Assembly: GCA_963695635.1 (NCBI GenBank)
Contig: CAVOHK010000005.1
Location: forward strand, 66,821 to 130,820
DNA from: an uncultured Acidobacteriota bacterium
GTDB taxonomy: Bacteria > Acidobacteriota > Vicinamibacteria > Vicinamibacterales > CAVVIG01
Direction of reading: 5' to 3'
Length of the DNA stretch: 64,000 nucleotides
The translations under genes and the position numbers were made by a program. The notes below the pieces were generated by a model that was not told the DNA's origin, ran no database searches, and was given only the letters and a program-made list of their open reading frames with translations. Shown piece by piece: positions 13,597 through 64,000 of this stretch (position 1 is the stretch's first letter; each line of letters opens with the position of its first letter).

Positions 13597-14553
13597 CCGC
13601 GAACGACGCGCGCGGGGCAGGGGCGCCGGGACTGGACGTCGTCACCGCCGACCATCTTTCCAAGTGGTACGGCCAGGTAATCGGCCTCAACGACGTTTCG
13701 GTGTCCGTCCCTGCCGGAATCACCGGATTGTTGGGTCCGAACGGCGCCGGCAAGTCCACCTTCATGAAGTTGATCACCGGTCAGCTGCGGCCCAGCAAAG
13801 GCTCGATCGCGGTGCTCGGCGAACCGATCTGGCAGAATCCGAAGCTGTATTTCCGGATTGGCTTCTGCCCCGAGCAGGATTCGTTTTACGAGCGGATGAC
13901 CGGCCTTGAGTGGGTGACCGCCCTGGTCCGGTTGAACGGCGTCAGCGACAGCGACGCCGACGCGATGGCGCGCCGGGCGATCGAAGCGGTGGATTTGACC
14001 GATGCGTCGAACAAGAAGATCGGCGCCTACAGCAAAGGCATGCGGCAGCGGATCAAGATGGCGCAAGCGATCGCGCACGATCCGGAACTGCTGATCCTCG
14101 ACGAGCCGCTGTCCGGAATGGATCCGCTGATGCGCCGCAAGACGATCCGGATGATCAAGGACTGGGGCCGGGCCGGGCCGCAGCATCATCGTGTCGAGCC
14201 ACATCCTGCACGAAATCGAATCGATGACCTCGAACATCCTCCTGATCAACCAGGGTCGCATCCTCGCTGAAGGCAACGTCCACCAGATCCGGGACCTGAT
14301 CGACGAACACCCGCACACGGTCTACGTCAAAGCCGACCAGACGCGTGCCCTCGCGCGCGAATTCCTCGCCTACGACGATGTGTTGAGCCTGAAGTTCGAG
14401 GAAGGCGCGGTCGTCGTCCAGACCGGCAAGCCCGATGCGTTTTACGCACGGCTGACCGACCTGGCGGCCTCGGAATCGATCGGCGCGATTCATGAAGTGA
14501 CGTCACCCGACGACAACCTGCAGGCGGTTTTCCAATATCTGGTGAAACAATGA
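13593..14553 (+). pseudogene. ABC transporter ATP-binding protein, one frameshift near 14170-14195
   Basis: The ATG at 13593 lies in ORF 13428..14270 (GPNGAGKST, YSKGMRQR, LLILDEPLSG). It continues in ORF 14191..14553 (SSHILHEIESMTSNILLINQGRILAEG). Confidence 0.85.
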
Positions 14554-15371: not shown

Positions 15372-15411
15372 ACGGTTAACATCCCGTCTTAAGCTGTTGA
15401 GGGCGTAGGCC

Positions 15412-16439
15412 ATGACTGCGAGAACCCGTTATTTCGTGATCGTTTCGCTTCTGGTGGTGGGCGTCGGGCTCGGCACCGGGTTGGTGGCGTATTACGTTGG
15501 TTTCCCGGCCGGCGCGTTTACCCAGGCTGGCGGGCCCGCCGAACTGCAGTTGGTTCCGCGCAATGCCACCGTCGTCGCCTACGCCAACGTCGGCGAGATC
15601 ATGGCGTCCGACCTGCGGCAGAGGCTGCGCCGCGCCATTCCGATTCACGAAGACGGTCAGAAAGAACTCGAAGAGCGCACCGGCATCAACATCGAAACCG
15701 ACATCGACCGGATCATCGCCTGCCTGAATCCTGACCCGGAGAACACGAGCGGACCGGGCGCCGGCATGGTCGTCGCTCGCGGCCGTTTCAACGAAACCAA
15801 GATCGAATCGTTGATGCGCGAGCACGGCGCGCAGGTTGAAGACTATCGCGGCAAGCGCCTGATCGTCGCCGACAGCCACGTCAGCGGCACCGAAATCGGG
15901 GATCGGCGATTTGCCGCCGCGTTCATCGAGCCTGGCCTGGTTGCGCTCGGCTCCACCAAGCTGGTTCGTTCGGCCATCGACCTCCATCAAACCGGCGACA
16001 ATCCACAGGCCGGTCTGCAAAGCGTTACCGGCAATGAAGAGTTGATGAATCTGGTCCGCTCGCTCGAGAGCGGCAATGCGTGGGCGGTGGGACGCTTCGA
16101 CGCGCTGCAGTCGCAGGCGCGGTTGCCGCAGGAACGTCGTCGTCACGCCTGCCGGCGATTACCTGGTTCGCGGTCAGCGGCCACATCAACGGCGGCCTCC
16201 GCGGAACGGTTCGCGCCGAGACGCGCGACGAAGAGGCCGCCAACAACCTTCGCGACATCGTCCGCGGGTTCCTGGCCCTCGGCAAGATGCAGTCGACTGG
16301 CCGACCGGAGATTGCGGCGATGATGCAGTCGCTCGAACTGAGCGGCACCGGCAAAACTGTGGCGCTGTCGTTCACCGTTCCTGCCGAAATCTTCGACGTC
16401 ATCGGCACAATCGCACCGAAAAAGCCCGCCGTTCAGTAA
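15412..16439 (+). pseudogene. Hypothetical membrane-anchored/exported protein, one frameshift near 16140
   Basis: ORF 15412..16323 (N-terminal TM helix) joins ORF 16080..16439 (..AITWFAVSGHINGGLRGTVRAETRDEEAANNLRDIV..). It is the last gene of the ABC cluster and is followed by a strong terminator. Confidence 0.55.
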
Positions 16440-19201: not shown

Positions 19202-19330
19202 CCGGAACAAATTCAGGATCCGTGCCACGGCCGGCGGGCGCAAAACGTAGCAATTCCGGCCACTTTTCTGTCGGTTCCGCCGGGCCGTTTATCTCCGGCT
19301 GACCCCGAAAGGTTCCATACCATCGTCGCC

Positions 19331-20833
<1,503 letters not shown>

Positions 20834-28715: not shown

Positions 28716-31639
28716 TCAGAACTTGAACGCTCCTCGGAAAACGATCGTCCTCGGTCCGAGAATCGCTGCTGGCGAGAGGAACTGCTGCAGCGTCGCGCGC
28801 TGACCGGTCGTCGGATCGGTGAACGTCGCGGCTTCCGTGCGGTTGCGAACCTGCCAGACCGTGTCGGAATTCAACAGGTTGTCGAAATCGACGGTTCCCT
28901 CGAAGCTCCGGTTGCCCGAGAGCCTGAACAGCTTGCCGACGCGCACGTCGATCTTGTTCAACGTGTCGATGCGCGAGTTGCCCATCGGCTCGAGGTTGAT
29001 GATCTGGTTGGTCGCGAAGCCGACGGCGCGGCTGATTTGCCGCGTGTAAGCCGGTCCCTGCTGCGAGCTGAAGTTGCCGCTGAGGATGACGTCGTGCCAC
29101 GGTAGCAGATACATCCCGGTCAGCTTGAACTGATTCGGCCGATCGGCGTTCGATGCGCCGCAGCCGGCGCATCGCGTCGATCCGCCAACGCCGGCGTCCG
29201 GGCTGATGTTGCCGTTGGCATTGATCAGGAAATTAGGAGAGGTATCGAGCGTTGCGTCGACCAGCTCATTTTTCGAGAACGTGTAACCGGCGAGCATCTG
29301 CCAGCGGTTGGTGAGACGCTTGTTGAGGGTGATTTCCAGACCCTTGTAAACTCTCTTTGCGTTCGGATCGTTGGTGATCACCGACCGATTTGCGGCGGAA
29401 GTGCGAGCGTAGAAACCGTAGGTACCGTCGTCCGCAGTGCCGACCACGCCGTCAATGCCCGGGTCGACAGCCGATGTCAACGTTGTCGCGTAGGCGTTGT
29501 CGGGATTGATCGACACCTGCAGGTTGGTGTCCCGGCGATAGGTAAACACGACGCCGAGCTTGGTATTGGGCATCACCTCGCGGTCGACGCCGGCACTGAA
29601 TTCATCCGTGTAGGGACGGCTGAACCCGGAGTCGATCGACGTGAGAATGGCGCCGTTGACGACGACCGCGCTGACCACTGGTACGCCGGTTTGCTCGCCG
29701 AGCTCGAATTTGCGGTTGGCGTTCGCGTCGTTCCAGGTGTACTGCTCGCTGTAGTTGGCGTTGCGATTGACCGCGCTGACGCCGCCGCCGCCGGTAGACA
29801 GCACGTAATAGTAACGTCCGTACGATGCCTTCGCGGCGGTCCTGCCGTCGCCGGTTGCGTCGAACACCGCGCTGACGCGCGGCCCGGTGGTATTCCACTT
29901 CACGATGTCACGCTGCTCGTCGTAGCTGCGCGGCTGAGCCGCGAAGCCGCCGATGTTTGCCGTCGCGAACGGCGAGGGCGGGCTCGATTGCGACGGCAGG
30001 TAGCCTTCCAACTGTTCGAATCGGAAAGCCGCCGATCAGCGTCAGGCGCTTTATCGAGATAGCTGTCCTGAGCGAACAGCGCCAGCACGTTGAGCGCGGT
30101 GGCGTCGTTTTGCGGTGTCGCGTACAACGTCACGTTGACCGGCACGAACGCACCGGTCGCCGATGTGTAGGTAGTCTGCACGTTGTCGACACGGTGCGTC
30201 TGGTTCTTGGTCACCGCATGCGAGTAGTCGAAGCCGAACTTGATTTCGTGGCGGCGCCGAGCGCCTGGTCGACGTAGTACTGTCCGGTGGCGTTGGCCTG
30301 ATAGCGGTCGCGATTGCGGATCACTTCGGTGGTGTTGTTCCCGTAGATGATGCCGGTCGCGTTGTCGATCGTCGACTGGTTGTTGCCGCCATTGAAATAG
30401 GTCGGGAACAGAATCTTGTTCAGACCGCCGCGAGCGTCGACGAAGAAGTTCTTGCCGAGAACGGCGTTCCACAGGCCCTGCGCGAGGTCGAACATGTCTT
30501 CTTCGTCAACCGTCGATTCGGTACGGTTATCGACGCGTTGTTGAGCAGCCGGTTCGGCTTGCTGTAACGCTGCCGCGAATAGAACCCGGTGAACCGATGA
30601 TTCTGATTGGCCTGGTAGGTGAAGTTGCCGAGGCCCGAGGTGATGTTGGTCTGGTCGAGGACGGTCTGTGAATTCTGCACCGGCACGTTCTGGTGAACGC
30701 GCCAGTCGCGGAACGACCCGAAGAACCGCAGCTTGTTCTTCACCAGTGGACCGCCGGCCGAGAAGTTGAAATCTGATACGAAGTCCGAGGTGTTGCCATC
30801 GGGTCGAAACCCGTACTTCTGGAGGTCCGGATTGTGATCGTTGCGGCCTTGCACCGGCTCGCCGGTCCACGTGCCGGTCGCCGTTCCGTTCCAGCGGTTG
30901 CCGCCGGTCTTGGTGATCATGTTCAGGAACACGCCCGAGGTCGGCACGGTGATGTCGTGCGAGCCGGTCGATACCTGGATGTCGTCGAAGGCGTCGAAGT
31001 CGTAATAGAAACCGGCCGCGCCGATTGCCGCCGGGTCGCCGACGTTCACGCCGTTCAGGAACGAGGTGTTCTGTGCGCTGGTCGTGCCGCGCGCGCTGAA
31101 CGTCCCCTGCAGGCCGCCCGACGTGCCGCCGACGTCCGGCCGGCTGATCACGAGGCCCGGTACCTTTGCTTCGACCAGCGCCCAGATGTCGCGCCCGCCG
31201 GGAGTGCCCTGAATCAACTGCTCGCTGAGGTTGACCGCTACGTTCGCGTCGTCGTGTCAACGGTCGGGGAGAGGCCGCTCACGGTGACTGTCTCGGCCAG
31301 CGTCGCGACTTTCAGCGACACGTCGATCGGCGTGGTTTGCCCGACGATCACGACGATGCCTTCGCGGAGCAGCGTCTGAAACCCCGACAACTCGAGCTTG
31401 ACGCTGTAGGTGCCAGGCACGAGTGACGGGAACCGTAGCACGCCGCCGGTGTCGGTCACACCGGTCATCGAACCGGCGACGAGCACCGGGCTGCTGATCG
31501 TGACGCTGACGCCGGGCATCACGGCGTTCTGTTCGTCAGACGCCTTCACCAGAATGCTGCCGGTCTGAACCTGAGCTTGCGCCACTGTGGCGGCTGCCAG
31601 AACGAGCAGCAGCACAAGACTTCTACTTACCAATCGCAT
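28716..31639 (-). pseudogene. Outer-membrane TonB-dependent-receptor-like protein with N-terminal CarboxypepD_reg domain, about 4 frameshifts
   Basis: N-terminus MRLVSRSLVLLLVLAAATVAQAQ..GVSVTISS..TDTGGVLRFPSLVPGTYSVKLELSGF is in ORF 31238..31714. Middle pieces are ORFs 30420..31217 and 29900..30472. The C-terminal barrel ORF 28716..30011 ends ..FRGAFKF. Confidence 0.8.
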
Positions 31640-37575: not shown

Positions 37576-40500
37576 TCAGAACAAGAACTTCGCCGCGAAC
37601 TGAATCTGCCGCGCCGACCCGGAGTCGCCGGTCGGGAAGCGGGTATTCGAGATCACGCCGAACGACGTGCTGCCGACGGCGGCCGTGCGGCCCGGCTGGC
37701 CGAGGTTCCCCTGGTTGAACAGGTTGAACATTTCGACGCGGAACTGAGCGCGCGAGCTGCCGACCAGCTTGATGTTCTTGATGAACGACAGGTCCGTATT
37801 GCCGAAGCCCGGTCCGTACATCACGTTCCGTCCAAGGTTACCGAAGTGCGCGACGCCCGCTGCGTTGTACGGCAGCGCGAAGATCGACGAGGACGTGCAG
37901 GCGCCGGCGGTTCCCGCGGCAATGCGCGGATCGCAGACCGTCGTCTGGCCGTCAAACCACTGGTAGCTCACCGGGAAACCATTCTTGTCGTTGTTCGGTG
38001 TCGCCACGATGGACGGCAGCGTTCCGATGAGATCCGGCCGGACCGTTGCGGTGCCAGTAATCGTCGTGATGTTCGTGACGATGTTGAACGGGTTGCCGGT
38101 CTGGGCCTGCTCGACGACGACGATCTGCCATCCGTCCTTCAGGCGGTTGCCGTGGAACGGAAGATCCCACGACGCGTTCACCGACATGCGGTGGCGGACG
38201 TCGAAGTCCGATGCCCCCACCTGAGCCGGCGAGGTTCGTGTTGTCCTGGGCCGTCAAGGTGCCGTCGTACGAGTTCGTGTCCGTCGACTTCGACAGCGTG
38301 TACGAGCCTGAGAGCTGCAGGCCGTGCGAGTAGTGGTGGTTCGCCGTCACCCACAGCCCTTTGTAATCCGACCAGCCGAGGCTGGTTGCTTCCGTGATGT
38401 TGCCAAGCGCCGCACCGGGAAGAATCGGCGAGGTCGCCGAGAGCTTGGGATACGGACGCACCGTGCCGCCCGGCGTCGTGAACTGATTCAGGTTGATCGG
38501 AATGCGCTGCCGGTCGCCGTGCGATCCGAAGTAGCCGACCATCACGCCCATGCGGCCGATCTCTCGCTCGACGTTGACGTTCCAGGACTGCATCCGACCC
38601 GGCAGGAAGTTCGGGTCGGTGAAGGTCGGCGCGGACGACGTCGCCGCGCCCGCTCCGTTGATGGCGTTGTCCAGCTTGATGTTGCTGGCCGCCGTGCCGC
38701 TGGCTTGCGCCGACAGCGGCGTCACGATCGGCGGATTCCCGGTCTCGCCGGTAAAGTAGCCGGTGTTGCTCTGGTTCACCATGACGGCATAGGCGCCGCG
38801 GACCGACAGTCTTGCCATCACCCGTGGGGTTCCAGATGACGCCCGACGCGCGGCTGGAAGTCGCTGCCGTTTTTGGTGACCTGCGTGAACCCGCCCGGGC
38901 CGTTGATCTGCAGCAGCGACTGCGTCGCCGGATCGAACGCGACGAGCTTGTCGTCAGCCTCGGTCGGCGACGGCAGGTAGTCGTACCGCAGGCCGAGATC
39001 GAGCTTCACGTTCGAGCCGAGCGAGACTGAATCCTGGACGAAGGCGCCGATGGCGTTCACGTAGGCGTTGAACGCCTGCGTGCCGAGTGTGGTGGCAAAG
39101 GCGCTGCCGAATCCCTGCTGAAACGCTGCGACGCTGGGATAGGTGAAGGTGCCCGGATTCTGGCTGAAGCCGTAGTGCTTGACGCGCCGGGCTTCGCCGC
39201 CGAACTTGATGATCTGCTTGCCGTGCAGATACGTTGCGGTGTCGCCCACCGCGAACGTCGTCACCTCGCGGCCGCTCGGGAACCCGGCCGGACCTCCGAA
39301 GATCAGGCCCGGACCGGAAATCGTGATCGCCGGCAGCGCGATCGGCATGGTCGTTTGGCCGACGTTGATGCCGAGAGCGTTCGTGTCGACGAGCGTCTGC
39401 GGGATGAAGCGTGATGCTGATCCGGTTGTATCCGGCGCGCACTTCGTTCACCAGCGCCGAGTTGAAGATGTGCGTCTCGTTGACCGTCATGATCTGGCGG
39501 TGTCCGCCGCGCCGGTCCGGGAAGCCCGGCACAGTCTGTCCCTGCGCGTTCGACTCCAGGCGGGAGTCCTTCTGGAACGCGTAGTAGAAATGGAGGTCGT
39601 CGCTCTGCCGCAGGTTGTTGCGTGAATCGATCGTGTATTGATCGATGGTGACCGGCGCCAGCGGCGAGCTGATCGCGCGCGTACCGGTCAGGTCGTTGGC
39701 CTTCGGGATGTACTGGAGCAGATTCTTCGCCGTCGGATCGGTGACGCCGGCGCGTTGCGCGTCGGTCAGCGTGCCGGAATTCAGGTCGACGCCCTGCTCG
39801 TGGCGAAGCCCTTCGTAGCTGCCGAAGTAGAACGACCGGTTCTTCACCACGGCTCCGCCGAGGTTGACGCCGAACTGCTTCCGGTTGAACAGCGATTGCT
39901 GCGTGGTATTGCCCGACGTGTCGATGCTCGGCGGGATTGAAGTAGTTGCGCGAATCGAACTGGTCGTCGCGGTAGAAGTCGAACGCTTCACCGTGCATCT
40001 GGTTGGCGCCCGATCGCGTCGCGACGTTGACGATGGCGCCCGAGTTGCGGCCGTACTCGGCGCTGAACGTCGAGTTGTCCACCTTGAATTCCGACACCGT
40101 GTTGATCGACGGCTGGAACGTGACCTGCGAGTTGGACAGGTCGTTCAGGTTGATCCCGTTCAGCATCATGTTGACGGACGTCTCACGGTTGCCGGCCGAC
40201 ATGAACGAAAACGATCCCTGGCCGCGGAGCGGCGCGCTGAGGCCCGCGTTCTGTGGCGACGTCGAGCCGCCGGGCATCAGCGGACCGAGGTCGACGAAGT
40301 GGCGCCCGTTCAGCGGAATTTCCTGCACGGTCTTTTCCTGCCATCGCCTGGCCGACCGACGTCGTCGCGGTATCGATCAGCGGGGACGAACCGGTCACCG
40401 TCACGTTTTCGGAAAGCGACGCCGAGGCCGAGCTTCAAATTGAGAACGATCGTCTGGGCAGGCCCGAGATCGGTTTCGCCGTTCTGGTCCTTGAAGCCTT

Positions 40501-40744
40501 CCAGGTGCGCAACGACCGCGTAGTGGCCGGGCGGCAGCGATGCCGCGACATACTGCCCAGCGTTGTCGCTGACCGTCGTCCGTTCGATGCCGGTCGCGAC
40601 GTTGCGGATCGTCACCGTGACGCCCGGCATGACCGCACCCTGCGCGTCGGTGAGCAATCCCTGAAGGGTGGCGGTCGATTGGGCGTGTGCCGGGACGACC
40701 GAAACGAGAGCGACCGCCAGGACGAAGGAAACGAAACGAACCAT
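37576..40744 (-). pseudogene. Outer-membrane TonB-dependent-receptor-like protein with CarboxypepD_reg N-terminus, at least 6 frameshifts
   Basis: N-terminus MVRFVSFVLAVALVSVVPAHAQ..GVTVTIRNVATGIERTTVSDNAGQYVAASLPPGHYAVVAHLEGF is in ORF 40310..40744. Other pieces are ORFs 39303, 38954, 38818 and 37952. The C-terminal ORF 37576..38220 ends ..QFAAKFLF. Confidence 0.8.
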
Positions 40745-40877
40745 CGATCCTCCTTATGCGAACAGTGGCTGAAATTGGCATCGGATCGTAACGGGTTGCC
40801 TGCCCGCCAAATCACAAGGAAATCAAAAGGAAGGCGATTCTTGCAGCGGTCTACGGAAGGATGGATCGAAGATACCC

Positions 40878-40920
40878 AAAAAAGCGAAGGGCGCGGCCAG
40901 GTTTCCCCGACCGCGCCCTT
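40878..40920 (-). terminator. Rho-independent terminator of the radical SAM gene
   Basis: The minus strand reads AAGGGCGCGG, a loop, CCGCGCCCTT, then cgCTTTTTTGG. Confidence 0.65.
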
Positions 40921-40935
40921 AAGGGTCGTTAGATC

Positions 40936-40970
40936 CTAATCCCTGAATCCCCAATCCCCAATCCCTAATC
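40936..40970. repeat. Tandem heptamer repeat AATCCC(C/T) x4-5
   Basis: TAATCCCTGAATCCCCAATCCCCAATCCCTAATCAC sits immediately 3' of the radical SAM stop and before its terminator. Confidence 0.8.
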
Positions 40971-40971
40971 A

Positions 40972-43134
40972 CTACACGATCGGCTTGTGCAGCACTTCCG
41001 CCGGCTCCTGGGCCTTCTTCTTGCCGCCCAGGCCCTGAATCTGCAGGGTCGGTTGCTCTTTCAGCACGTGCTGGCGATAGAGCTTGGCCATTTCGGCGTC
41101 GCGCGCGAGTTCTTCGGGCGTCCTTGTCTTGTCCGGGGCCCCTCCCCCGGAGTGCTTGTCCGGGCTCCTCCCCCGGAGTGCTTCCGCGCCTGCGCCGCCA
41201 GCTTCTCTTCACGCGCGTTCTTGGCGATACCGAGATCGTCGAGGTCGGTCTGCGCGCCGGCGGCCACGGCCTCGTCGTTCAGCACCAACGAATGTTCGTT
41301 CGAATTCAGCTGCACGCTCTTGCCGCCGGCGAAGATTTCGTGGCGGCCGTGCTCCTCGTACCACTTGGTGAGCGTGGCCGTCATGTGCATCTTTTCAATA
41401 ATGTTTCTCCAGCCGATGCCGGTGTTATACGCGCAGAAGGAAATTTCGCCCTGCTGCGTGGCATACGGGATGATGCACATCTCGGTGCGACGGAAGTCGT
41501 AGTTGAAGAGATCCTGGAACCACATGCCGGCGACGAACAGGAAGTTCCAGCGATCGGCGCGGCGCTTCGCGATGTCGTCCATCGTCCGATCGCCCTCAAC
41601 CCGGCCGTACTTGCCCTTTTCCGCCGACTTGGTCGCACCGAAGGTCTTGTCGAACTTCTTCAGCAGATCGGTCAGCTTGAAGTGGGTCGGCGAGTTGAAC
41701 GAATCGTAGTTGCGGACGAGCGACAGCGCCATGCCGAACACCGACAGGAATCGGCCGCGGCCCGCGTCTGTCACCTGGGCAATATCCTTGGCGAGTTGTT
41801 CAGCCTTGAGGAACTTGGTGACGGGAACCGCTTCTTTGGTTTCCTTGTCGATCATGATCGCCATGCCGACGCCGCAGTTCGGGTGGCAGCCGCAGGTCAG
41901 CTGGCCGAATTCCTTTTCGGCGCCGTGCGTCACGTCGGCCCAGTCGGTGAAGCTGCCCATGAAGGAAATCGGGAACCAGTCACGGACCGGCTCGCCGATA
42001 CCGGTCTGGTTCTTCACGTCGTGCGCGAGGTGCGACAGCGTGTAGCGCTGCGCCGCGCGCCGCTCCGGCGTCACTTCTTCGTCCCGGCCGGTGAACGATA
42101 CCGGCTGGAACGAGAGGAAGTTGATCTTCTTCGGGTTGTCGAGCGCGAACTCGATGATGCGTCCGACCTGCTCGTTGTTGACGCCGTTGACGATCGTCAC
42201 GACCGGCACGATGTCGACGCCGGCGCTGTAGAGGTTCTCGATCGCGCGCAGCTTTACGTCGAACAGGTTGCCGACGCGGCGGTGCGAGTTGGCCGCGTTG
42301 CCGATGCCGTCAAACTGCAGGTAGGCGTAGCGCAGTCCCGCTTCAGCGGCCGCCTTGGCAAACTCCGGGCTCTTCGCGAACTCGATGCCGTTGGTGGCGG
42401 CCTGAACGCTGTTGTAGCCGACCTTGCGCGCGTAGCGAACGGCGTCAAGGAAGTATGGGGAGATCGTCGGCTCGCCGCCCGAGAACTGGACCGACATCTG
42501 TCGGCGCGGCTTGATGGTGATCGCGTTGTCGAGCACCGTCTTGATGTCTTCCCAGCGACAGCTCATGCACGAAACCAACCTGGTTCGCGTCCATGAAGCA
42601 TGGGTCGCACATCATGTTGCAGCGGTTCGTCAGGTCGACCGTAAGCACCGAGCCGCGGCCGTGCTTGATGGTGCTCGAGCCGTGGTTGTGCAGCTTATCG
42701 TCGTTATGGGCGCGGATGTCGCGGCCTGGGAACACTTCTTCGAGATGCTTGAAGAAATCGGTGTCGATCGCCATCACGTCCTCGAAGTGGCCGTGAATCG
42801 GGCAATCCTTCACCATGAGGATCTTGCCGTCGCGCTCGAGAATCGTCGCTTTGATTTCGCCGACCTTCTCGTTCAGCAGGACGCTGACGTCTTTCTTACC
42901 GTCGAGAATCGCCTGCCGCGCTTCGCGCGTGCAGGTCGGGCACAGCGAGTCGGTCTCGCGCGGCCAGCCAAGTGGCGGTTTCGTCTTTTCGTAAGACTTC
43001 AACAGCGGCTTGTCGGACCACTTCGGCGTAAAGGAAGGTCGCTGGTTGATTTTGTTCAGCGCATTGAAGACCACCCACGCACCGTTCGCGGCAATCGACA
43101 GGCCCTTCTCGGCGTATTTGATAGGCTCGTGCAT
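40972..43134 (-). pseudogene. Radical SAM protein, Tes/GDGT-MAS (membrane-spanning lipid synthase)-like; 1-nt indel near 42555 and a 26-nt tandem duplication at 41131-41183
   Basis: ORF 42445..43134 has SLCPTC...DCPIHGH and TNRCNMMCDPCF. ORF 41061..42578 has FSGGEPT and CGCHPNCG. My own third frame gives the end ..PDKTRTPEELARDAEMAKLYRQHVLKEQPTLQIQGLGGKKKAQEPAEVLHKPIV with TAG at 40972. Confidence 0.8.
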
Positions 43135-43230
43135 CCCTAAATAATAGAGGACAAACAGCTTACTGGATTACGTTTTCGGTGAACGGGCGTACGGACGGTG
43201 TGAAATGGCAGGAATCGCTGGTCGGATGGC

Positions 43231-43253
43231 CAAAAGACGACCGCAGCGGTCGG
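43231..43253 (-). terminator. Weak hairpin plus T-tract downstream of the receptor gene
   Basis: The minus strand reads CCGACCGCTGCGGTCG then TCTTTTGG. The stem is short. Confidence 0.3.
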
Positions 43254-43271
43254 AGTTTTGGCGGATCGTTT

Positions 43272-43366
43272 AGGGGACTGAGGGACTAGGGGGACTGAGG
43301 GACTGGGGAACTGCGGGCTGGAGTGACTCAGGACTAGTTTCCTAGTCCCCTAGTCCCCCAGTCCCC
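43272..43366. repeat. Tandem 7-9 nt repeat hairpin, unit G(A/G)GGGACT(G/A) with complement AGTCCCC(T/C)
   Basis: AGGGGACTGAGGGACTAGGGGGACTGAGGGACTGGGGAACTG...CCTAGTCCCCTAGTCCCCCAGTCCCC. It starts 6 nt after the stop at 43372. Confidence 0.85.
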
Positions 43367-43371
43367 ATTCT

Positions 43372-46290
43372 TCAGAACTTCATCTGCAGCCCGAACCGTG
43401 CGAACCGGCCGTCGACGATGCCGGTCGGCGTCAGCCACAGGTTCGTGCCGGTCGCCGCGTACGTCTGGTTCACGCTCGTGACGGTGCCGAGCGTTGAACA
43501 CGTTGAAGACGTCCATGAAACCCTGGATCCTGTACCGGTCGAAGCGGAACGTCTTGCCGAACCGCATGTCGAACCGATGCTGGCGTGTCGAGGAACAGGG
43601 TGTCCCGATTCCACCAGGTTGACGACCGTCGATGTCGTCGCCGGCCGTGGATCCGATGATCGGACGGCCCGCAATCGCCGCCGTCACCGTGTAGTTCGCC
43701 GCGATCGTGTTGGGGGCAGGAATCGGCCGAGAACGTAGCCGCTGACCTGGATGTCCTAGGGGAACGAGTAGGCGCCCGACGCCTTGACCGTGGTCCGGAA
43801 CGGCGGCAGCCGAGTCGCAGAAGCGCAGCGCCGTTCGGATTGTCACGCGTCGTCGCCGGCGTTCGCCGTCGCAGTCGTCGAGACGCGGCGATCGGTCGTC
43901 ACGCCACCGAACAGCAGGTACTTGGCGCCCCGCGCGTTGACCGTGAACTCGACGCCGTCGTAGGTGGTCTTGTTCTGCGTCGAGTACGTCGCGCAGGTTG
44001 TCCGTTGCGACGCCGACTTTGCTGCTGTTCAACGTGTACATCGAGATCGGCTGTCCCGCCAGCGGCAGCCGCGAGTCGGTCGGCGTGTTGATGCGTGTAG
44101 CGCGGTCCAGTCGGACTCGGCCCGACGTTCAGGTTGTCGTTCACCTGGAGGTTGTAGAAGTCGCGGCGGTAGTAGCCCGCCGTCGCCGACAGGCGCGGCC
44201 GCAGTTCGCGCTGCAGCACGACGCTGTATTCCCAGTTGTAGCCGCGCGGCAGGTTCGGATCCGGCCGCGACGTGACCTGGCCGAAGTTCGACGTGCCGCC
44301 GAGCACTTCGTTGGTCTGGATGCGAGCCGTCGGCGTTGAGGATCGTCTTGTCGCCGTTGGCGTCGTTCCAGCGTGCGCGTCTGCGGCACACCGGCAAGGG
44401 TGCCGCTCATGCCGTTGAACGTCTGCGCGAAGCCGGCCGCCTGCGCGGCGACGTACTTGCCGACGTTGCCCTTGAGCGCCGTCTTGCCGTCGCCGGTCAG
44501 GTCGTACGCCGCCGCGAAGCGGACCGCCCAGTCGTTCCAGTTCGGCACGTTCTTGATCTCGGCGAAGTTGCGCGCGCCGATCCAGGTCGACGCCGGCGAC
44601 GATTCCGCCGGAATCGACGCGTTGAAGTGCTCGAACCGGGCGCCGTAGTGCAGCGTCAGGCGCTTCATCGTCCAGGCATCCTGCCCGAAGAGGCCGAGGT
44701 CGCTGTTGACGTTCTGATACGACGGTGGCCGGTGAGTTGTAGACCGAAACCTGCGAACGGGAAGTCGATGAGCGGATCGTCGTGCCCGGCATGACGATGT
44801 TGACGGTGATCAGCGTGTTGATGTTCGCGCGCGGCGCGAACGTCCGCGAGTTCTCGCCCCAGAGGTTCGTGAAGCCGAACTTCATCGCGTGGCGAGCCGG
44901 TGACGTAGCTGGCCGACGCGAGGACGTTGTAGTCGTTGGTCGTCGCTCGTGTACGGCGGAATCAGGTAGCCGCAGCGGCCCGTGAGCAGGCCCGTCGAGA
45001 CATTGAGCTTGGGCAGCGCCATCGGGTTGGTCGCGTTCGCGAGCAGTTCTGCTCGTACGCCTGGTTGTACTGGGCGATGCCCGCCTCGAGGAGCAGCTTG
45101 TTCGAATGCGCGCGCGTCCAGCGCACCTGCGGAATCCAGCCGACGCCGAACGCGTCGGTTGACGCTTCAGGCGTCATGACGGCGTAGGTATTGAAGCCGT
45201 TGTAGAACTCGCCGTTGTATTGCTTCTCGATATATGCGCGGACCTTGTCCTTGCTGCCCAAAGCGACCGTCACGCGTCCGGCCCCGCTGTAGTTGCCCAT
45301 CAGATTGCGATACGCCTGGCTGCCGTCCGGGAACTTCGCGCTCGGGACGTAGATCTTGCATCCTGGTACTTGTAGGTGAAGAAGAACCAGGCCTTGTCCT
45401 TCACGATCGGGCCGCCGAACGCCGGATTGACCTGCCAGTCGTACGCCGTGCCGGCGATGGCGATGAGCGGGAGCCCGTTCGCCTGAATCGCCTTCATCTG
45501 ATCGGTGCGGTTGTCCGACTGCAGGCCGCTGCCCTGGTACGACAGGAAGAAGGATCCCGAGAAACGGTTGCCGCCGTCTTTCGGCACCTGGTTGACGCGG
45601 ATGCCGCTGCTCTGGATTTCGGCGGATTCGGATCCGGTCGCGTAGCTCAACTCCTGGATGGCGCGCGTCGTTCATGTAGAAGCCGCTGTACTGACCGCTG
45701 CCGCACAGGTTGTTGACGCGCAGACCGTCGATCGCCATCGTGAAGTCGGACGTCGAGGACCCGTGACTCGTCAGGTTGTACTGACCCAGCACGAACGGCG
45801 TCACGGTTGTTCCTGGAATCAGCAGCGCCCGCGCCGTGGTGTCGCGCCGGGTCGTCGGAATCGCGTCGAGGACGTCGCGGTTCGCGACGAATTCCTTCTG
45901 CGTGTTGATGACGTCGACGGTCGGCGTTTCCGCCGTGACGGTCAGCGTCTCTTCCATCGCGCCGACCTGGAGCTCGACGTTGATTTGGGCGACGAACGTG
46001 CCCTCAATCACGATGCCGCCGCGCCGGACGGTCTTGAAGCCTGTCAGCGTATAGGCCATCGAGTACGTCCCGGGCGGAAGGTCAACGATCTTGTACTGAC
46101 CTGCGCCGTCGGTTATTGCGGTGCGGCTCTTCTCAATCAGCGAGTCGCTGGATGCTTCAACGGTGACGCCGGGCATGATGGCGCCGCTGGTGTCTCGCAC
46201 CATACCGGCAATGCTGCCCTGCGCGAGCGCAATAGCCGGGACGAACAGAACGAATAGCGCGACCGTGAGTCGCACGCACAGCTTCCGCAT
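43372..46290 (-). pseudogene. Outer-membrane TonB-dependent-receptor-like protein with CarboxypepD_reg N-terminus, at least 8 frameshifts
   Basis: N-terminus MRKLCVRLTVALFVLFVPAIALAQGSIAGMVRDTSGAIMPGVTVEASS.. is in ORF 44962..46365. Other pieces are ORFs 45300, 44141, 43899 and 43334. The C-terminus ..GRFARFGLQMKF is in ORF 43372..43674. Confidence 0.8.
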
Positions 46291-46456: not shown

Positions 46457-46554
46457 GTCACTCGGCACTCGCCGCTCGCCCTCGCCGCTCGGCCTTCGCC
46501 GCTCGGCTGCGCCAGCAACGAGCGACGAGCGACGAGTGACAAGTGGCGAGCGAC
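46457..46554. repeat. Heptamer tandem-repeat hairpin: (GCCGCTC-like)x8, then AGCAAC (GAGCGAC)x2 GAGTGAC AAGTGGC GAGCGAC
   Basis: Read directly. It has the same unit family and orientation as 5476-5538, and it abuts the LytTR gene stop. Confidence 0.8.
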
Positions 46555-47309
46555 TAGATGCCGAGGCGGGTTTTCAGGTCGCGGACGCGATCGCGCGCCA
46601 CGCTGAGCTCGGTCTTGCGGTCGTCTTTCAGTCGCACCAGCACCCCACCGTCGACCGCCGGATACAGTTCCTGCACGAATCCGGTATTCACGATGGTCGC
46701 GCGATGAATCCGGACGAAGCGCCGCGAATCGAGCCGTTCTTCGAGTTGCGACAAGGTGAGATCGACGACGTGGTCGCGCCCGCCGACAACTGCAAACGTG
46801 AGCTTGTCGCGGGCGACGAAGTGCGTCACGCGCGCCACGTCGAGCAGCGTGGTCCGTTCGCCAACCTTTGACGCAATCCGATCCAGCTTGCGGGAGGGCG
46901 AGAGCTGCGCCGCCAGTTCGCGGGCGAGCGCACGGACGTCAGGTTGCGGCGGCTGCTGAGCGTACCGCTCGACCTTGTCGAGGGCGCGCTCCAAACGTTC
47001 GGGTTCGATTGGCTTTAACAGATAGTCGATCGCGCTGGTCTGGAATGCGTTGAGCGCGTAGGCGTCGTATGCCGTTGTGAATACAACGGTTGGCGGGCGC
47101 TCGAGCCGTTCGAGCAGTTCGAACCCGGTCATGCCCGGCATTTGAATGTCCAGGAACAGCACGTCCAGTGCCAGCTGGTTCAGCGTTTCCAAGGCATCCT
47201 GCGAATCGGTGGATGTTCCGACGATTTGCACACGACCGGTGTCGCGCAGCAGCCGTTCCAACCGCTGCACCGCCAACCGTTCGTCGTCAAGGATGAAGGA
47301 ACGGATCAT
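46554..47309 (-). CDS. LytR/AlgR-family response regulator (receiver plus LytTR)
   Basis: 251 aa with ILDDE, DVLFLDIQMPGMTGFELL and the LytTR end FVRIHRATIVN. Confidence 0.92.
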   Translation of the reverse strand: MIRSFILDDERLAVQRLERLLRDTGRVQIVGTSTDSQDALETLNQLALDVLFLDIQMPGMTGFELLERLERPPTVVFTTAYDAYALNAFQTSAIDYLLKPIEPERLERALDKVERYAQQPPQPDVRALARELAAQLSPSRKLDRIASKVGERTTLLDVARVTHFVARDKLTFAVVGGRDHVVDLTLSQLEERLDSRRFVRIHRATIVNTGFVQELYPAVDGGVLVRLKDDRKTELSVARDRVRDLKTRLGI

Positions 47310-48355
47310 GCCGGGCGGTCGTGCGTTTCGGGGACCGTCAGGATGACGACCGTGTGGCCGGGAGAGCTGTTGATTGTGACGCTCGCCGACTGATTGAACA
47401 GCAGGGCGGTGCGATCCTTCAGCAACGCCAGGCCGTGGCCGGCGGTCACGACTGCCGGGTCGAACCCGGGACCGTCGTCTTCCACAGAAATCCTGAACGA
47501 CGTCGGCGCAGGCGGTCTCGACGTCGACGCGGTCGCCGTGATTGTGATCGACGCGCCCTGGCGGCTCGGCGAGACCGCGTATTTCACGCTGTTTTCGACG
47601 AGGGTTTGAATGCTCAGGCGTGGTATGCGTGCGCGACGGGCCGGCTCGTCGACGTCAATGCGATAACGCAGCCGCTCGCCGAACCGCACCTGTTCGATCG
47701 CCAGATAGTCACGGACGGTTTGTAATTCGTCGTCCAGTGCGACGAGCGGCGTTGCCTGTTGATCGAGCGACGATCGCATCAGCGATGCCAGTTGGCCGGT
47801 CATCCGCTCCGCGCCTTTCGGATCCTCGTGAATCAGCGCCGCAATCGAATTGAGTGTGTTGAAGAGGAAATGCGGTTGAACCCGCGATTCGAGCGACGCG
47901 AGCTGCGCTTGTACCGTTGCCTGGGCAACCCGCGCCTTGGTCATCTCGTAGGCCGTAATGAACAGTCCGATGGTCAGGGTAACAACGATCGCGATGCGAA
48001 TGCTCCCGCGAAACCAGTTGGCGAAATCCGTCGCGGGAATCATGCCGATGCCGAGCAGCACCGCGATCGCGGCCAGGCTGCCGACGATCGCCATTGCCGC
48101 CATTGCGATGGCGATGACGATCCAGTTCACCGGAAAGTGCGTCCGCTGCCATACCCACGGCGCGAGCCGCGGCATGACCGCCCCGACGAACGGTGCGATG
48201 CACGTGGAAAATAGCAGTGCGATGGCGTAAGCGCGAACCACCTGCGGTCCGGGCGTCCGCAGGGTGACGCCGCTGAACGCGAACAACACGACCGCCGACG
48301 CGATCAGGTTGCCGACGAAGATGCGGCGCCAGTAGCGGACAGTCTCGGGATTCAC
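47306..48355 (-). CDS. LytS/YehU-type sensor histidine kinase
   Basis: 349 aa with multi-TM N-terminus, QPHFLFNTLNSIAALI (His_kinase domain) and an HATPase_c end (VEDDGPGF). It overlaps the RR gene by 4 nt. Confidence 0.88.
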   Translation of the reverse strand: MNPETVRYWRRIFVGNLIASAVVLFAFSGVTLRTPGPQVVRAYAIALLFSTCIAPFVGAVMPRLAPWVWQRTHFPVNWIVIAIAMAAMAIVGSLAAIAVLLGIGMIPATDFANWFRGSIRIAIVVTLTIGLFITAYEMTKARVAQATVQAQLASLESRVQPHFLFNTLNSIAALIHEDPKGAERMTGQLASLMRSSLDQQATPLVALDDELQTVRDYLAIEQVRFGERLRYRIDVDEPARRARIPRLSIQTLVENSVKYAVSPSRQGASITITATASTSRPPAPTSFRISVEDDGPGFDPAVVTAGHGLALLKDRTALLFNQSASVTINSSPGHTVVILTVPETHDRPA

Positions 48356-49190: not shown

Positions 49191-51356
49191 CTATGGATTG
49201 GTGTAGGCGGCGGTCTTCTTCCCCTGGAGCCATTGATCCATCCAGCCGACGATGTGCTGGAGCCGTTCGATGCGGTGCCACGGTTCGCCCGAACGCGACA
49301 ACTCGTGCGTTTCACGCGGGAAGCGCACCATCACCGTCGGAATCTTTCGATATTTGAGAGCGCGGAACATCTCTTCGCCGCCGTTGGCGGGCGGCGTCCG
49401 GTAATCCTGATCACCGAGCACGAACATCGTCGGCGTCGTGACGTTGGCGACGTGGGTGATTGGCGAGCGCGCGATGAAATCCTGCGGATCCTCCCACGGG
49501 GCTTTCCGGAACCACGTCGGCTGGAACAGCGTGAAGTCCGCGGTGAACCAGAAGCCGTACCAGTCGGCGATGTCGCGTTGCGCCACCGCCGCCTTGAATC
49601 GTTGCGTCTGGGTGATCGTCCAATTGGTCAGCAGTCCACCGCCGCTTCCGCCGGTCACGCCGAGCCGGTTCGAGTCGATGTATCCCTTCTTGAGAATTTC
49701 GTCGACGCCGGCCATCAGGTCTTTGTAATCGTCGCCGGGGTAGTGGTACTGGATGATGTTGCCGAAGTCCTGGCCATACGACGTGCTGCCGCGCGGGTTG
49801 GTAAACAACACCACGTAACCTTTCGCTGCCATCCACTGGAATTCGTGCGTGTAGGTGTTGCCGTAGGCGGCGTGCGGCCCGCCGTGGATCTCGAGAATCA
49901 GCGGATACTTCTTCGCCGGATCGAAGTCCGGCGGTTTCAGAATCCAGCCTTGAATATTGCGGCCGTCGAAACTCTGTACCAGATTTCTTCAGGCTGGCTT
50001 TGGGTGATGCCGCCGAACAGTTCGTCGTTGACGCGGGTGATCTGGCGCGGTTTTTCACCCGGTCGGCGCAGCACCGCGATGTCGTTGATCGCCGTTTGCG
50101 TCGACAACGTCATCGCGATCGTCGATGTATCCGTGGTCGCGCTGTAGGCGATAACGTCCTGCAAGCCATCGGTAATCGGTTCGATCGCCCCGGACGCAAT
50201 CGTGATGCGCTTCAGGTTGGCGCTGCCTTTTTCGGCGGCGACCACCAGCAATGACGACTGATCGGCTGACCACAGAATCGGTTTGCGATTTTGCCCGCGC
50301 GGCGCCGCCTGATCGCCGCCGATGCCGCCGCTGATGTCGTAGTCGTAGGTGGCCGTCAGGTTTTTGGGCGTGCTGCCCGGCGTCGCGTCGGTCACCCACA
50401 GGTCTGACTGGCTGTACGAACGGATCGGTTTGCCGCTCAACGCCGCGACAAACGCAATGCGTTTGCCGTCCGGAGAAACCGAGATGCCGCCGATGCCGCC
50501 GTCGATACTCGCCACCTTGGTCAACTCGCCGCCCGCGGCCGGCACGCTGAAGAGTTCAGCGCCCGCCTCGGTGTAGTACGGCTCCGAGACGCGTGTGGAC
50601 GTGAAATAAATCTTCGATCCGTCCGGTGCCCACGCGATGCCACCTTCGTCGAACTCCCCGTCGGTGAGCTGCATGGGCGCGGGCTTGTCCATCGCGTCCG
50701 CAGGCACGCGGATGGTGAAAATGTGGGTGTGATGCTCGTTGTCCACGTAAGTCGGGTTACCGTTGGCGCGATACACGGCTCGAGTGATTACCTGCACGTC
50801 ACTCTCGTGTGGTTTCTCCGTGTCTTTCCCTGACTGTGCATCCTGCGCTTCCTGCTGCTTTCGCCCGGTGGACGCGCTGAACGCGATGGTTTTGCCGTCT
50901 GGAGACCATGTCGGGTTTCCGGCGCCGCGCTGCACGTCAGTGATCGCGCGCGCTTCGCCGCCGTCCATTGCCAATAAATAGATCTGCGACGGCTGGGGTC
51001 TTGTTGGCATTGTCTCCACCGCTCGATTGACTCGCGGGCGTGCGGACGAAGGCCAGCAGCCTGCCATCGGGCGACCAGCGCGGCGTGGTGTCGCGGATGC
51101 CGGACGTCAATCGCCGCGGTGCCGTCGATCCATCCGTGGGCACCGCGTAGAGAGACGACTCGTAACGGTTTTCCTTTTCATTCACCGTCACGCGAACGAA
51201 CGCCACCGTCGATCCGTCAGGCGAGATGTTCGGATCGGCGATCCAGGTGAATTTGAACAGGTCTTTTTCGGTAATGAAGCGTTTGCTCTGGGCGTGTGGT
51301 GAAACCACGCACAACACCACAACGGCGGAAACGGCGACCGCGACACGGCGCACCAT
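49191..51356 (-). pseudogene. Secreted S9-family serine peptidase (propeller plus hydrolase), at least 2 frameshifts
   Basis: The N-terminal ORF 50937..51356 has a signal peptide and WSPDG. The propeller is in ORF 49937..51067. The catalytic ORF 49191..49832 has [18 protein letters not shown] and ETHELSR. Confidence 0.85.
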
Positions 51357-63100: not shown

Positions 63101-63283
63101 GAAACGCTCGCGCGCGAGCGCATCCGCCTGTTCCGCGGCCAATACTTTGATGGCGAGGTCGCGCTCCAGCCGCGGATCGCGAGCGCGATAGACTATGCCC
63201 ATCCCGCCGACGCCGATCTGACCGACGATTTCGTAAGGACCGAGGCGCGTTCCCGGGGCAATCACTCCACGTAGATTATGCAT
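60183..63283 (-). pseudogene. Ser/Thr protein kinase fused to a STAND (NB-ARC/AfsR-like) NTPase and TPR repeats, 2 frameshifts
   Basis: The kinase is ORF 62345..63283 (GVGGMGIVYRA, HRDLKPENV, DFGLA). The P-loop is in ORF 61783..62622 (LTGPGGVGKSRLA, LLVLDNFEH). ORF 60183..61883 has LDGLPMALELAA, a winged-helix region and TPR repeats. Confidence 0.8.
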
Positions 63284-64000
63284 GCACCGCGTTTGCAGGA
63301 CATTGTTGCCGCACGACAGCGCGTTTATCGGCTGGTGCGGCCGACACCTCTACTACACCACGCGCTGCTGGCGCGGGAAACGGGTCTCGACATTCTCGTC
63401 AAGCACGAGAATCACAATCCGACCGGCGCGTTCAAGGTGCGCGGCGGGCTGAACCTGATTGGCAGCCTTTTGCCGGAGGACCGGCGCGGCGTGATTACCG
63501 CGACCACCGGCAACCACGGCCAGTCGATCGCGTTGGCGTGTCAACGCGAGGGCGTGCCCTGTGTCATCGTCGTTCCGCTCGGCAACAACCCGGAAAAAAA
63601 TGCCGCGATGCGCGCGCTCGGAGCCGAGTTGGTGGAGTTCGGCAAGGATTTTGACGAAGCGCGGGAAAAAGTCGAAGCAGATGCAGCACGAACGTAGGTT
63701 GCGCTACGTGCATTCCGCGAACGAGCCATTGCTGATTGCCGGGGTTGGCACTTACGGTCTCGAAATCTTCGAACAGATGCCCCGATGCCGACGTGATCAT
63801 CGTGCCGATCGGCGGGGGCAGCGGCGCGTGCGGATGTGCGTTGGTTCGCTCCGGACTCGGCAGCTCCGCCAAAGTCATCGGCGTTCAGGCCGAGCGTGCC
63901 GACGCATTCGCGCGTTCGTGGCGCGGTCCGTCGCGAGTCGTCGGAGACAAGGCTGACACGTTCGCTGAAGGAATGGCCACTCGAGTGACGTTCGACTTGA
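63278..64000 (+). pseudogene. PLP-dependent threonine/serine dehydratase family protein, at least 2 frameshifts, runs off the window end
   Basis: ORF 63278..63697 has HENHNPTGAFKVRGG and TGNHGQSIA. It continues in other frames as ..YVHSANEPLLIAGVGTYGLEIFEQ.., ..VIIVPIGGGSGA.. and ..KVIGVQAE... Confidence 0.8.

Follow-up and report, generated by a model that had tools for sequence, protein, structure and literature searches.

A stretch of 64,000 nucleotides from an uncultured acidobacterium (contig CAVOHK010000005.1, positions 66,821 to 130,820; the whole stretch is called the window here, and positions are those of the window) contains a gene for a protein of the radical S-adenosylmethionine (SAM) type related to the archaeal tetraether lipid synthase Tes. 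Based on sequence profiles and on the predicted fold, the protein is almost certainly a member of the Tes/GDGT-MAS superfamily (GDGT, glycerol dialkyl glycerol tetraether). It is of the Acid_2410 type, a long (~700 aa) clade which is ~30% identical to Tes of M. acetivorans. By analogy with GDGT-MAS, the locus could encode a functional enzyme of this clade that would join lipid tails as membrane-spanning chains; we consider the case for this function to be evenly balanced. The gene runs on the minus strand from 43134 to 40972, with an ATG at 43134 and a TAG at 40972–40974, and is spread over three frames by two single-base indels. Its signal is far above chance, because the protein matches thousands of full-length proteins of 690–712 aa with E=0 and 85–93% identity.

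Family, fold and metal sites

Two Pfam domains are found in the protein, PF23545 (Zn_ribbon_HMPTM, the N-terminal zinc ribbon of the MJ0619 type) and PF04055. The top NCBIfam match is the Tes model NF045702 with 312.8 bits, covering model positions 2–483 of 486; the equivalog cutoff of this model (NF045702, IPR034474) is 450 bits. The best match among PDB sequences is GDGT-MAS (7tol_A; E 1.1e-64, aa 93–592), followed by MoaA and SkfB at ~1e-6 to 1e-5. The AlphaFold2 model, which was built with a 27-sequence alignment, has a pLDDT of 84.4 and a pTM of 0.85. In the Foldseek comparison with PDB, 7TOM and 7TOL are at the top (E 1e-36; TM 0.86–0.88 normalised to the target; 555–564 aligned columns), and the predicted fold takes in the whole lipid-binding C-terminal domain of GDGT-MAS. 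The next fold is SkfB (E 7e-9, TM 0.45), ~27 orders of magnitude behind. An earlier interpretation made from the letters and their open reading frames (ORFs), here called the sequence-only reading, had placed the gene in the Tes/GDGT-MAS (MJ0619) family, and both the sequence and the fold comparisons agree with it. Its acidobacterial context is also confirmed, as the closest relatives are metagenome-assembled genomes (MAGs) of Vicinamibacterales.

It is very improbable that the protein belongs to another radical SAM subfamily, either the SPASM/twitch peptide maturases, the selenoprotein TrsS or the 7,8-dihydro-6-hydroxymethylpterin dimethyltransferases. TrsS (NF045646) is the second NCBIfam match, but its 211.8 bits are far under its cutoff of 490 and under the Tes score. 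Weak matches to SPASM families are also on the NCBIfam list; they cover only the radical SAM core, with 26–73 bits against cutoffs of 265–650. The sequence-only reading would have been abandoned if the best matches had been SPASM maturases, but SkfB and SuiB are far off by sequence (E ~6e-5) and by fold (TM 0.38–0.45). Many relatives are labelled "dihydro-6-hydroxymethylpterin dimethyltransferase" by JGI. However, methanopterin synthesis is not known in bacteria of the phylum Acidobacteriota, which counts against a pterin methylase. Neither a precursor peptide nor a conserved selenium or pterin partner gene was found in the 80 loci compared below. Besides, Lloyd et al. failed to corroborate the pterin assignment and showed that MJ0619 is GDGT-MAS (PMC9433317).

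The metal sites of MJ0619, the GDGT-MAS of Methanocaldococcus jannaschii, are a rubredoxin-like Fe site (C9X2C12X20C33X2H36), an N-terminal auxiliary cluster, [4Fe-4S]N (C73, C77, C80 and a His), the radical SAM cluster, and a C-terminal cluster, [4Fe-4S]C, with the labile ligand Met439 (Lloyd et al., PMC9433317). Met439 and Tyr459 are fully conserved in 1000 archaeal homologues, and a carbon-sulfur intermediate of the substrate is formed on the C-terminal cluster (Lloyd et al., PMC9433317). The window protein has the same fold as MJ0619 (7TOL, 7TOM; Lloyd et al. 2022), with ~29–33% identity over ~500 residues. Residue numbers of the 7tol chain are the native numbers plus 20, as verified with Cys102, Cys105, Met439 and Tyr459. 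The features of the gene are as follows.

40972..43134, minus strand: whole Tes-like gene, ATG to TAG, 711–720 aa after repair, 85–93% identity to full-length proteins
43051..43128, minus strand: N-terminal helix, aa 3–28, a helix in the AlphaFold2 model with pLDDT 86–95
42769..42963, minus strand: rubredoxin-like/zinc-ribbon domain, aa 58–122, PF23545 with E 1.7e-13
42634..42768, minus strand: region in place of the [4Fe-4S]N domain, aa 123–167, cysteine-free and partly disordered in the model
42144..42633, minus strand: radical SAM core, aa 168–330, PF04055 with E 5.7e-19, including SGGEPT
41874..41894, minus strand: C414-x-C416-H417-x-x-C420 (TCGCHPNCG), from alignments
41433..41525, minus strand: M537, C553, Y557 and C567, corresponding to Met439, C455, Tyr459 and C470 of MJ0619
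40975..41360, minus strand: C-terminal extension, ~aa 592–711, absent from Tes-type proteins of ~500–550 aa (alignment A1)

The motifs quoted in the sequence-only reading (SLCPTC, DCPIHGH, TNRCNMMCDPCF, SGGEPT and CGCHPNCG) are all present. The rubredoxin-like ligand positions form CX2C...CX2H, with C65 and C68 in SLCPTC and C111 and H114 in DCPIHGH. In alignment A1 of 27 sequences, C68, C111 and H114 are invariant and C65 is nearly invariant. From these ligands, a metal-binding site equivalent to the rubredoxin-like Fe site of Tes/GDGT-MAS is predicted. Relative to MJ0619, the domain has a helical insertion of ~22 aa.

The radical SAM motif CX3CX2C (TNRCNMMCDPCF) is made of C172, C176 and C179 at 42598–42621. 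They are aligned to C98, C102 and C105 of MJ0619 and are nearly invariant in A1. Further downstream, C420, C553, C567 and M537 align with C338, C455, C470 and Met439 of MJ0619, as is seen for [4Fe-4S]C, and Y557 in CIIPYAT aligns with Tyr459, the Tyr of CIHYAT in MJ0619. Conservation suggests C420, C553 and C567 as the ligands of the C-terminal cluster; the text of Lloyd et al. names only Met439. Thus, the radical SAM cysteines, C420/C553/C567 and the equivalents of Met439 and Tyr459 are all kept, which is every residue tied to C-C coupling. As a side observation, the first cysteine of the radical SAM motif is replaced by Phe (TNRFNMMCDPCF) in P0020, a 91% identical orthologue from a Vicinamibacterales MAG at NCBI; the cause is a sequencing error, or else the allele is inactive.

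The stretch CGCHPNCG had been taken for an extra Cys cluster, but it does not set the protein apart. C420 is a family-wide ligand position and H417 is invariant. The other two cysteines, C414 and C416, precede the invariant His and have no counterpart in MJ0619. Among the representatives of the Tes-type clade, seven nevertheless have C416 and two have C414, including proteins above the Tes cutoff.

A further difference from MJ0619 is at the N-terminal auxiliary cluster. The stretch from H114 to C172 contains no other Cys, neither in the window protein nor in any clade member, and C73, C77 and C80 of MJ0619 are all replaced. H158, which aligns with the histidine after C80 (taken as the histidine ligand), is kept as a relic. 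The AlphaFold2 model has pLDDT <50 at aa 143–149. Nine of ten representatives of the Tes-type clade carry the motif CPxxCGxCxxH here. P0269 from Parcubacteria is without this motif, yet it scores 584 bits with the Tes model, above the cutoff. Therefore, the loss of the N-terminal cluster alone is not disqualifying. The sequence-only reading had proposed that a structure prediction should reveal three Fe-S sites and a rubredoxin-like site. The ligand positions of the rubredoxin-like, radical SAM and C-terminal sites are there, and the N-terminal cluster motif is absent. The prediction from the ligands is thus two [4Fe-4S] clusters and one mononuclear site, not three and one.

Two extensions are also not shared with MJ0619. 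The N-terminal helix belongs to an extension of ~60 aa, which the majority of the shorter Tes-type proteins of A1 do not have. Its muH is 1.34, and no transmembrane-like segment is seen, as no hydrophobic 19-mer with a mean KD >1.6 occurs anywhere in the protein. Based on the model, the helix is plausibly amphipathic and a peripheral membrane anchor. The C-terminal extension of ~120 aa contains the conserved motif WYEEHGRHEIFAGG, followed by a length-variable, low-confidence linker and the conserved tail MAKLYRQHVLKEQP. Beyond aa 620, pLDDT is 31–69.

Frame breaks and surroundings of the gene

In the sequence as given, ORF 42445..43134 (minus strand) encodes 229 aa, ORF 41061..42578 (minus strand) encodes 505 aa, and a third frame runs to the TAG at 40972–40974. 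The frame changes in the gene and elsewhere in the window are as follows.

42555..42556, minus strand: frameshift 1, one surplus base, from the DNA alignment with 7 relatives and tblastn
41128..41183, minus strand: tandem repeat and frameshift 2, 26 + 27 nt, found by TRF with period 26 and 2.1 copies
13422–14547, 15373–16430, 19327–20827 (four) and 28719–31561 (four): frame changes elsewhere, from tblastn
44124–45659, 49900–51300 and 63275–63999: further frame changes elsewhere, from tblastn

At frameshift 1, the window reads CTGTCG-C-TGGGAA, whereas the seven relatives have TCC TGG or TCG TGG. The frame switch is placed at 42554/42556 by tblastn with every relative. The surplus base is the alternative allele at a G/C-variable wobble position. 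Frameshift 2 is in the tandem repeat 41128–41183, which sits in the linker of variable length among relatives. Removal of the 26-nt copy gives a protein of 711 aa. Addition of one C to the CCC run at 41162–41164 makes both copies 27 nt long and gives 720 aa, in agreement with the ~720 aa that had been proposed earlier by joining the two ORFs and the third frame. After this repair, both copies encode HSGGGAPDK, and they differ by one synonymous change, GGA/GGG. The repeat looks like a genuine in-frame duplication of recent date, on which a homopolymer error of 1 nt is superimposed.

If the two frameshifts were real mutations, the gene would be a pseudogene whose function is lost in the organism. 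The sequence as given has two breaks, and frameshift 1 is outside any homopolymer. We consider this explanation improbable. The repaired ORF has no internal stops, and dN/dS against five relatives is 0.04–0.09 before frameshift 1 and 0.06–0.10 after it. When the uninterrupted ORFs of related loci were compared with the window by tblastn, ~20 frame changes (~1 per 3 kb) were found over the 64 kb in unrelated genes whose orthologues in related MAGs are uninterrupted, both neighbours of the Tes-like gene included. Breaks of this kind are also present in the assemblies of several close relatives, such as at the 3′ end of locus L007. Frameshift 1 adds an alternative base at a variable wobble site, as is expected from a consensus error in a mixed population, and frameshift 2 is a C3 versus C4 difference between repeat copies otherwise encoding the identical nine residues. 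In the homopolymer test, the frameshift sites of the window are not as a rule in homopolymers, frameshift 2 being the C3/C4 case. The window looks like an error-prone assembly, probably from long reads, although the homopolymer test gives no pointer to the sequencing technology. Because ~20 frameshifts are seen elsewhere and dN/dS is 0.04–0.10 on both sides of the first break, assembly errors are preferred over a pseudogene. Both breaks are most likely assembly or sequencing errors, not biology, and the gene is in all probability intact in the organism. The many frame changes call for caution with any pseudogene call in the window.

The gene has its own terminator, as had been noticed earlier: a hairpin of 15 pairs, 11 of them GC, with a T-run at 40920–40887 (minus strand), 52 nt past the stop. 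A second terminator-like hairpin at 43252–43238 (minus strand), upstream of the gene, is consistent with the end of transcription of the preceding receptor gene, and ~100 nt remain between this hairpin and the ATG as leader or promoter space. The genes on either side are the two outer-membrane receptor genes of the sequence-only reading. Both encode receptors with CarboxypepD_reg plus an outer-membrane beta-barrel, and each of them is frameshifted too. In accordance with that reading, no lipid genes were found within ~10 kb. A sigma-70 promoter scan gave no match on the strand of the gene. No riboswitch was found in the Rfam scan of 40500–43700 (E up to 1).

Several other elements are seen around the gene. 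An imperfect hairpin of ~95 nt at 43271–43368 is composed of 8-nt units, GGGGACTR on one arm and YAGTCCCC on the opposite arm. The hairpin lies partly over the 3′ end of receptor ORF 43334..44041 (minus strand), the last one listed upstream, and may be a REP-like extragenic palindrome. The only Rfam matches, spurious miRNA-like ones, fall on this hairpin. At 40935–40970, a heptamer repeat CCCTAAT/CCCCAAT of ~3.6 copies, which reads GGGATTR on the gene strand, begins a few bases past the stop codon and lies ahead of the terminator hairpin. Antisense to the gene, an ORF of 490 aa is present at 41124–42596 (plus strand), with counterparts 60–75% identical in relatives; it is no second gene but the kind of shadow expected for a conserved gene of high GC. 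At 46554–48355 (minus strand), just upstream of the upstream receptor gene, the window encodes a response regulator of the LytTR type and a sensor with His_kinase (PF06580), and their order is kept in loci L001 and L002.

The Acid_2410-type clade and its neighbours

A search of 1.84 billion cluster representatives yielded 619 proteins at E up to 1e-30. In the neighbour-joining tree, the full-length representatives form two groups. The first group is composed of proteins of 500–550 aa, which are above the Tes cutoff where tested and nearly always contain CPxxCGxCxxH. The other, a long bacterial group, includes the window protein and is apart from all sequences passing the cutoff. Scores with the Tes model are 298.9 for the clade relative P0121, 413.8 for P0136, and 474–593 for the shorter representatives. 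As a side observation, P0269 (510 aa) comes from MAGs of Candidatus Parcubacteria/Minisyncoccales, and a host of the candidate phyla radiation is unexpected for a near-canonical Tes.

Two homologues of the Tes of M. acetivorans (MA_1486, 509 aa) are encoded by Solibacter usitatus: Acid_5929 (545 aa, 40.2% identity, E 1e-139) and Acid_2410 (Q025C7; 714 aa, 30.1% identity, E 4e-62) (Halamka et al. 2022, Table S5). The window protein shares clade, architecture and the length of ~700 aa with Acid_2410 and with P0294 of Koribacter versatilis Ellin345 (706 aa, 76% identical to it). Only the lineage, Vicinamibacterales for the window protein, and the variable C-terminal linker are different. A Solibacter-labelled MAG locus (L067) also matches at 75%. 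Acid_5929 and the top Koribacter hit (42%; Zeng et al. 2022) share superfamily, proposed reaction and phylum with the window protein, but the Acid_5929 type is shorter and much closer to archaeal Tes and does not include the window protein. Judged from representatives of ~540–550 aa above the Tes cutoff, Acid_5929-type proteins would carry CPxxCGxCxxH. Consequently, the earlier comparison with bacterial homologues holds at the level of the family but not for the closest bacterial Tes type, as the protein belongs to the more distant Acid_2410-type clade. No paper naming Acid_2410, Acid_5929, Q025C7 or WP_014786616 was found in a text search of the literature.

The long group contains diverged branches as well. 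WP_014786616 of Terriglobus roseus (P0135) is 40% identical to the window protein in A1 and 43% identical to P0001. P0135, P0151 and P0186 are without the C-terminal cluster cysteines, P0135 is without the conserved Tyr as well, and in P0147 the CX3CX2C of the radical SAM site is gone. The four may be non-catalytic or repurposed relatives in Acidobacteriaceae that produce iso-diabolic acid. The T. roseus-type family, in which the C-terminal cluster cysteines and the conserved Tyr are missing, is separate, with ~620 aa and 727 proteins, and almost no named isolates are among them.

The clade has at least 597 hits in species-representative genomes. Its members are 74–93% identical to the window protein and come from Vicinamibacterales, Terriglobia, Bryobacterales, Blastocatellia and other groups. 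Labels from outside Acidobacteriota are few, at 83–93% identity, and are probably binning errors. The conservation is higher than that of the surroundings: against the relative locus L002, the Tes-like protein is 94–95% identical, versus 55–86% for most flanking orthologues. The best 80 loci from the contig scan of genomes are all from MAGs, and Koribacter versatilis was the only named organism in a search with a Terriglobia orthologue.

The ORFs within 7 kb of the gene were clustered over 80 loci. No neighbour is common to more than 12 of them, and none is lipid-related as read from translations. From the translations, we take the neighbours in different loci to be folE, gatA/C, queG, mutY and msrPQ. 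As there is no common neighbour, the gene context gives no functional clue. The Tes-like gene is a conserved, free-standing unit.

Proposed reaction, its alternatives and what it would mean

The family, the fold, the ligand conservation, the purifying selection and the distribution described above are the basis on which we infer a substrate, a product, an electron path and a membrane association. In the proposed reaction, the radical SAM [4Fe-4S] cluster (C172/C176/C179) would split SAM, and the resulting 5′-deoxyadenosyl radical would take H from a lipid tail at its terminal methyl. The tail in acidobacteria could be iso-C15, an acyl or alkyl chain attached to a glycerolipid. A sulfide of the C-terminal [4Fe-4S] cluster (C420, C553, C567 and the labile M537, with Y557 close by) would hold the carbon radical as a C-S adduct. 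The held carbon would then be attacked by a second tail radical, also derived from SAM, to form a C(sp3)-C(sp3) bond, and the product would be a C30 membrane-spanning chain of the iso-diabolic type. Electrons may be passed by the rubredoxin-like site (C65/C68/C111/H114); the route would be unlike that of MJ0619, as the N-terminal auxiliary cluster is missing. The enzyme could be soluble and tethered to the membrane by the N-terminal amphipathic helix.

This proposal is compatible with several published facts. The host is a bacterium without phytanyl lipids, unlike that of MJ0619, but iso-C15 and phytanyl tails have identical isopropyl ends (Zeng et al. 2022), and GDGT-MAS also binds an ester-linked bacterial lipid (7TOM; Lloyd et al. 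2022). Orthologues are present in K. versatilis (P0294) and in S. usitatus (Acid_2410), a producer of branched GDGTs (brGDGTs), for which it was suggested that "one or both" homologues condense iso-C15 diethers (Halamka et al. 2022). Iso-diabolic acid is made by almost all species of subdivisions (SD) 1, 3, 4 and 6 (Sahonero-Canavesi et al. 2022). Mss, the membrane-spanning lipid synthase of Thermotoga maritima and Thermoanaerobacter ethanolicus, is also a radical SAM enzyme, with demonstrated tail-to-tail coupling of fatty acids, and its modelled catalytic architecture is reported to be shared with Tes. However, it is a separate radical SAM family, set apart from the window protein by its published description (Sahonero-Canavesi et al. 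2022). Its activity was seen only anaerobically, and a screen of selected acidobacterial genomes detected no homologues of Mss (Sahonero-Canavesi et al. 2022).

Other facts weigh against a role in membrane-spanning lipids. The score of the window protein is under the Tes cutoff, and the ligands of [4Fe-4S]N are replaced. Bacterial Tes homologues are still unconfirmed as makers of membrane-spanning lipids in papers of 2025–2026, and the Tes homologue of T. ethanolicus yielded no membrane-spanning lipid in E. coli (preprint). Tes homologues were found in only 3 of 14 Acidobacteria producing iso-diabolic acid (Sahonero-Canavesi et al.); this count is ambiguous for the Acid_2410-type clade, as the identity cutoff of the screen (at least 30%) equals the similarity of this clade to archaeal Tes. 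In T. roseus, the only relative visible is the 43% identical protein without the C-terminal cluster cysteines. A conserved neighbourhood of lipid genes was not found in the 80 loci. In S. usitatus, Acid_5929, the closer Tes homologue (40%), could be the real tetraether synthase.

The last point leads to an alternative with a smaller but substantial probability, namely that the protein is a paralogue in the Tes family with a different role. As a radical SAM enzyme, it would then work on a hydrophobic chain, by another modification of tails or on a non-glycerolipid substrate, and would not make membrane-spanning lipids. The coupling in brGDGT makers would then be done by the closer ~545-aa Tes homologue or by an unknown aerobic enzyme. 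The score of 312.8 bits against a cutoff of 450, the position in the tree and the presence of both types in S. usitatus fit this idea, as do the loss of [4Fe-4S]N and the gain of the ~60-aa and ~120-aa extensions. On the other hand, the Parcubacteria protein at 584 bits is also without the N-terminal cluster, so its loss is no mark of a separate function. Degeneration is seen in the sister branches (in P0135, P0151 and P0186 at the cluster cysteines, in P0147 at the radical SAM motif), but in the window protein all hallmarks of C-C coupling in GDGT-MAS, the C-terminal Cys triad, Met439 and Tyr459, are kept, and the predicted fold spans the whole lipid-binding domain with TM 0.86–0.88. Extreme conservation and neighbours of the housekeeping type, as read from translations, are unusual for an accessory lipid modifier; no neighbouring gene, however, points to an alternative substrate.

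If the protein does join lipid tails, a more specific proposal can be made: the ~700-aa clade without the N-terminal cluster, and not the closer Tes homologue or Mss, makes the membrane-spanning chains of the iso-diabolic type, and thereby the brGDGT cores, in aerobic soil Acidobacteria. This is a tentative idea and, in our judgement, rather unlikely. If it is true, the clade, by its spread and conservation over SD 1, 3, 4 and 6, would be a marker gene for the main terrestrial producers of brGDGTs.

For palaeotemperature and pH on land, brGDGTs belong to the proxies in widest use. The family of the Tes-like gene is one of only two candidate families in Acidobacteriota for the enzyme which couples their two alkyl chains. 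The sequence-only reading regarded the gene as the best candidate in the window for poorly characterised biology, but its lipid role was already proposed in 2022 (Zeng, Lloyd, Halamka). The window adds no new candidate, since both its family and the hypothesis appeared in print in that year and IMG already labels relatives as "tetraether lipid synthase". What is added here is the description of a clade which is without the N-terminal auxiliary cluster, keeps all C-C coupling residues, is exceptionally conserved and always stands alone. This sharper description aids the choice of the homologue to test first. The gene is ordinary for an acidobacterial genome, and it is of some value as a well-defined candidate for the question of brGDGT biosynthesis. 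If the clade does the coupling, environmental surveys could follow the producers by the gene.

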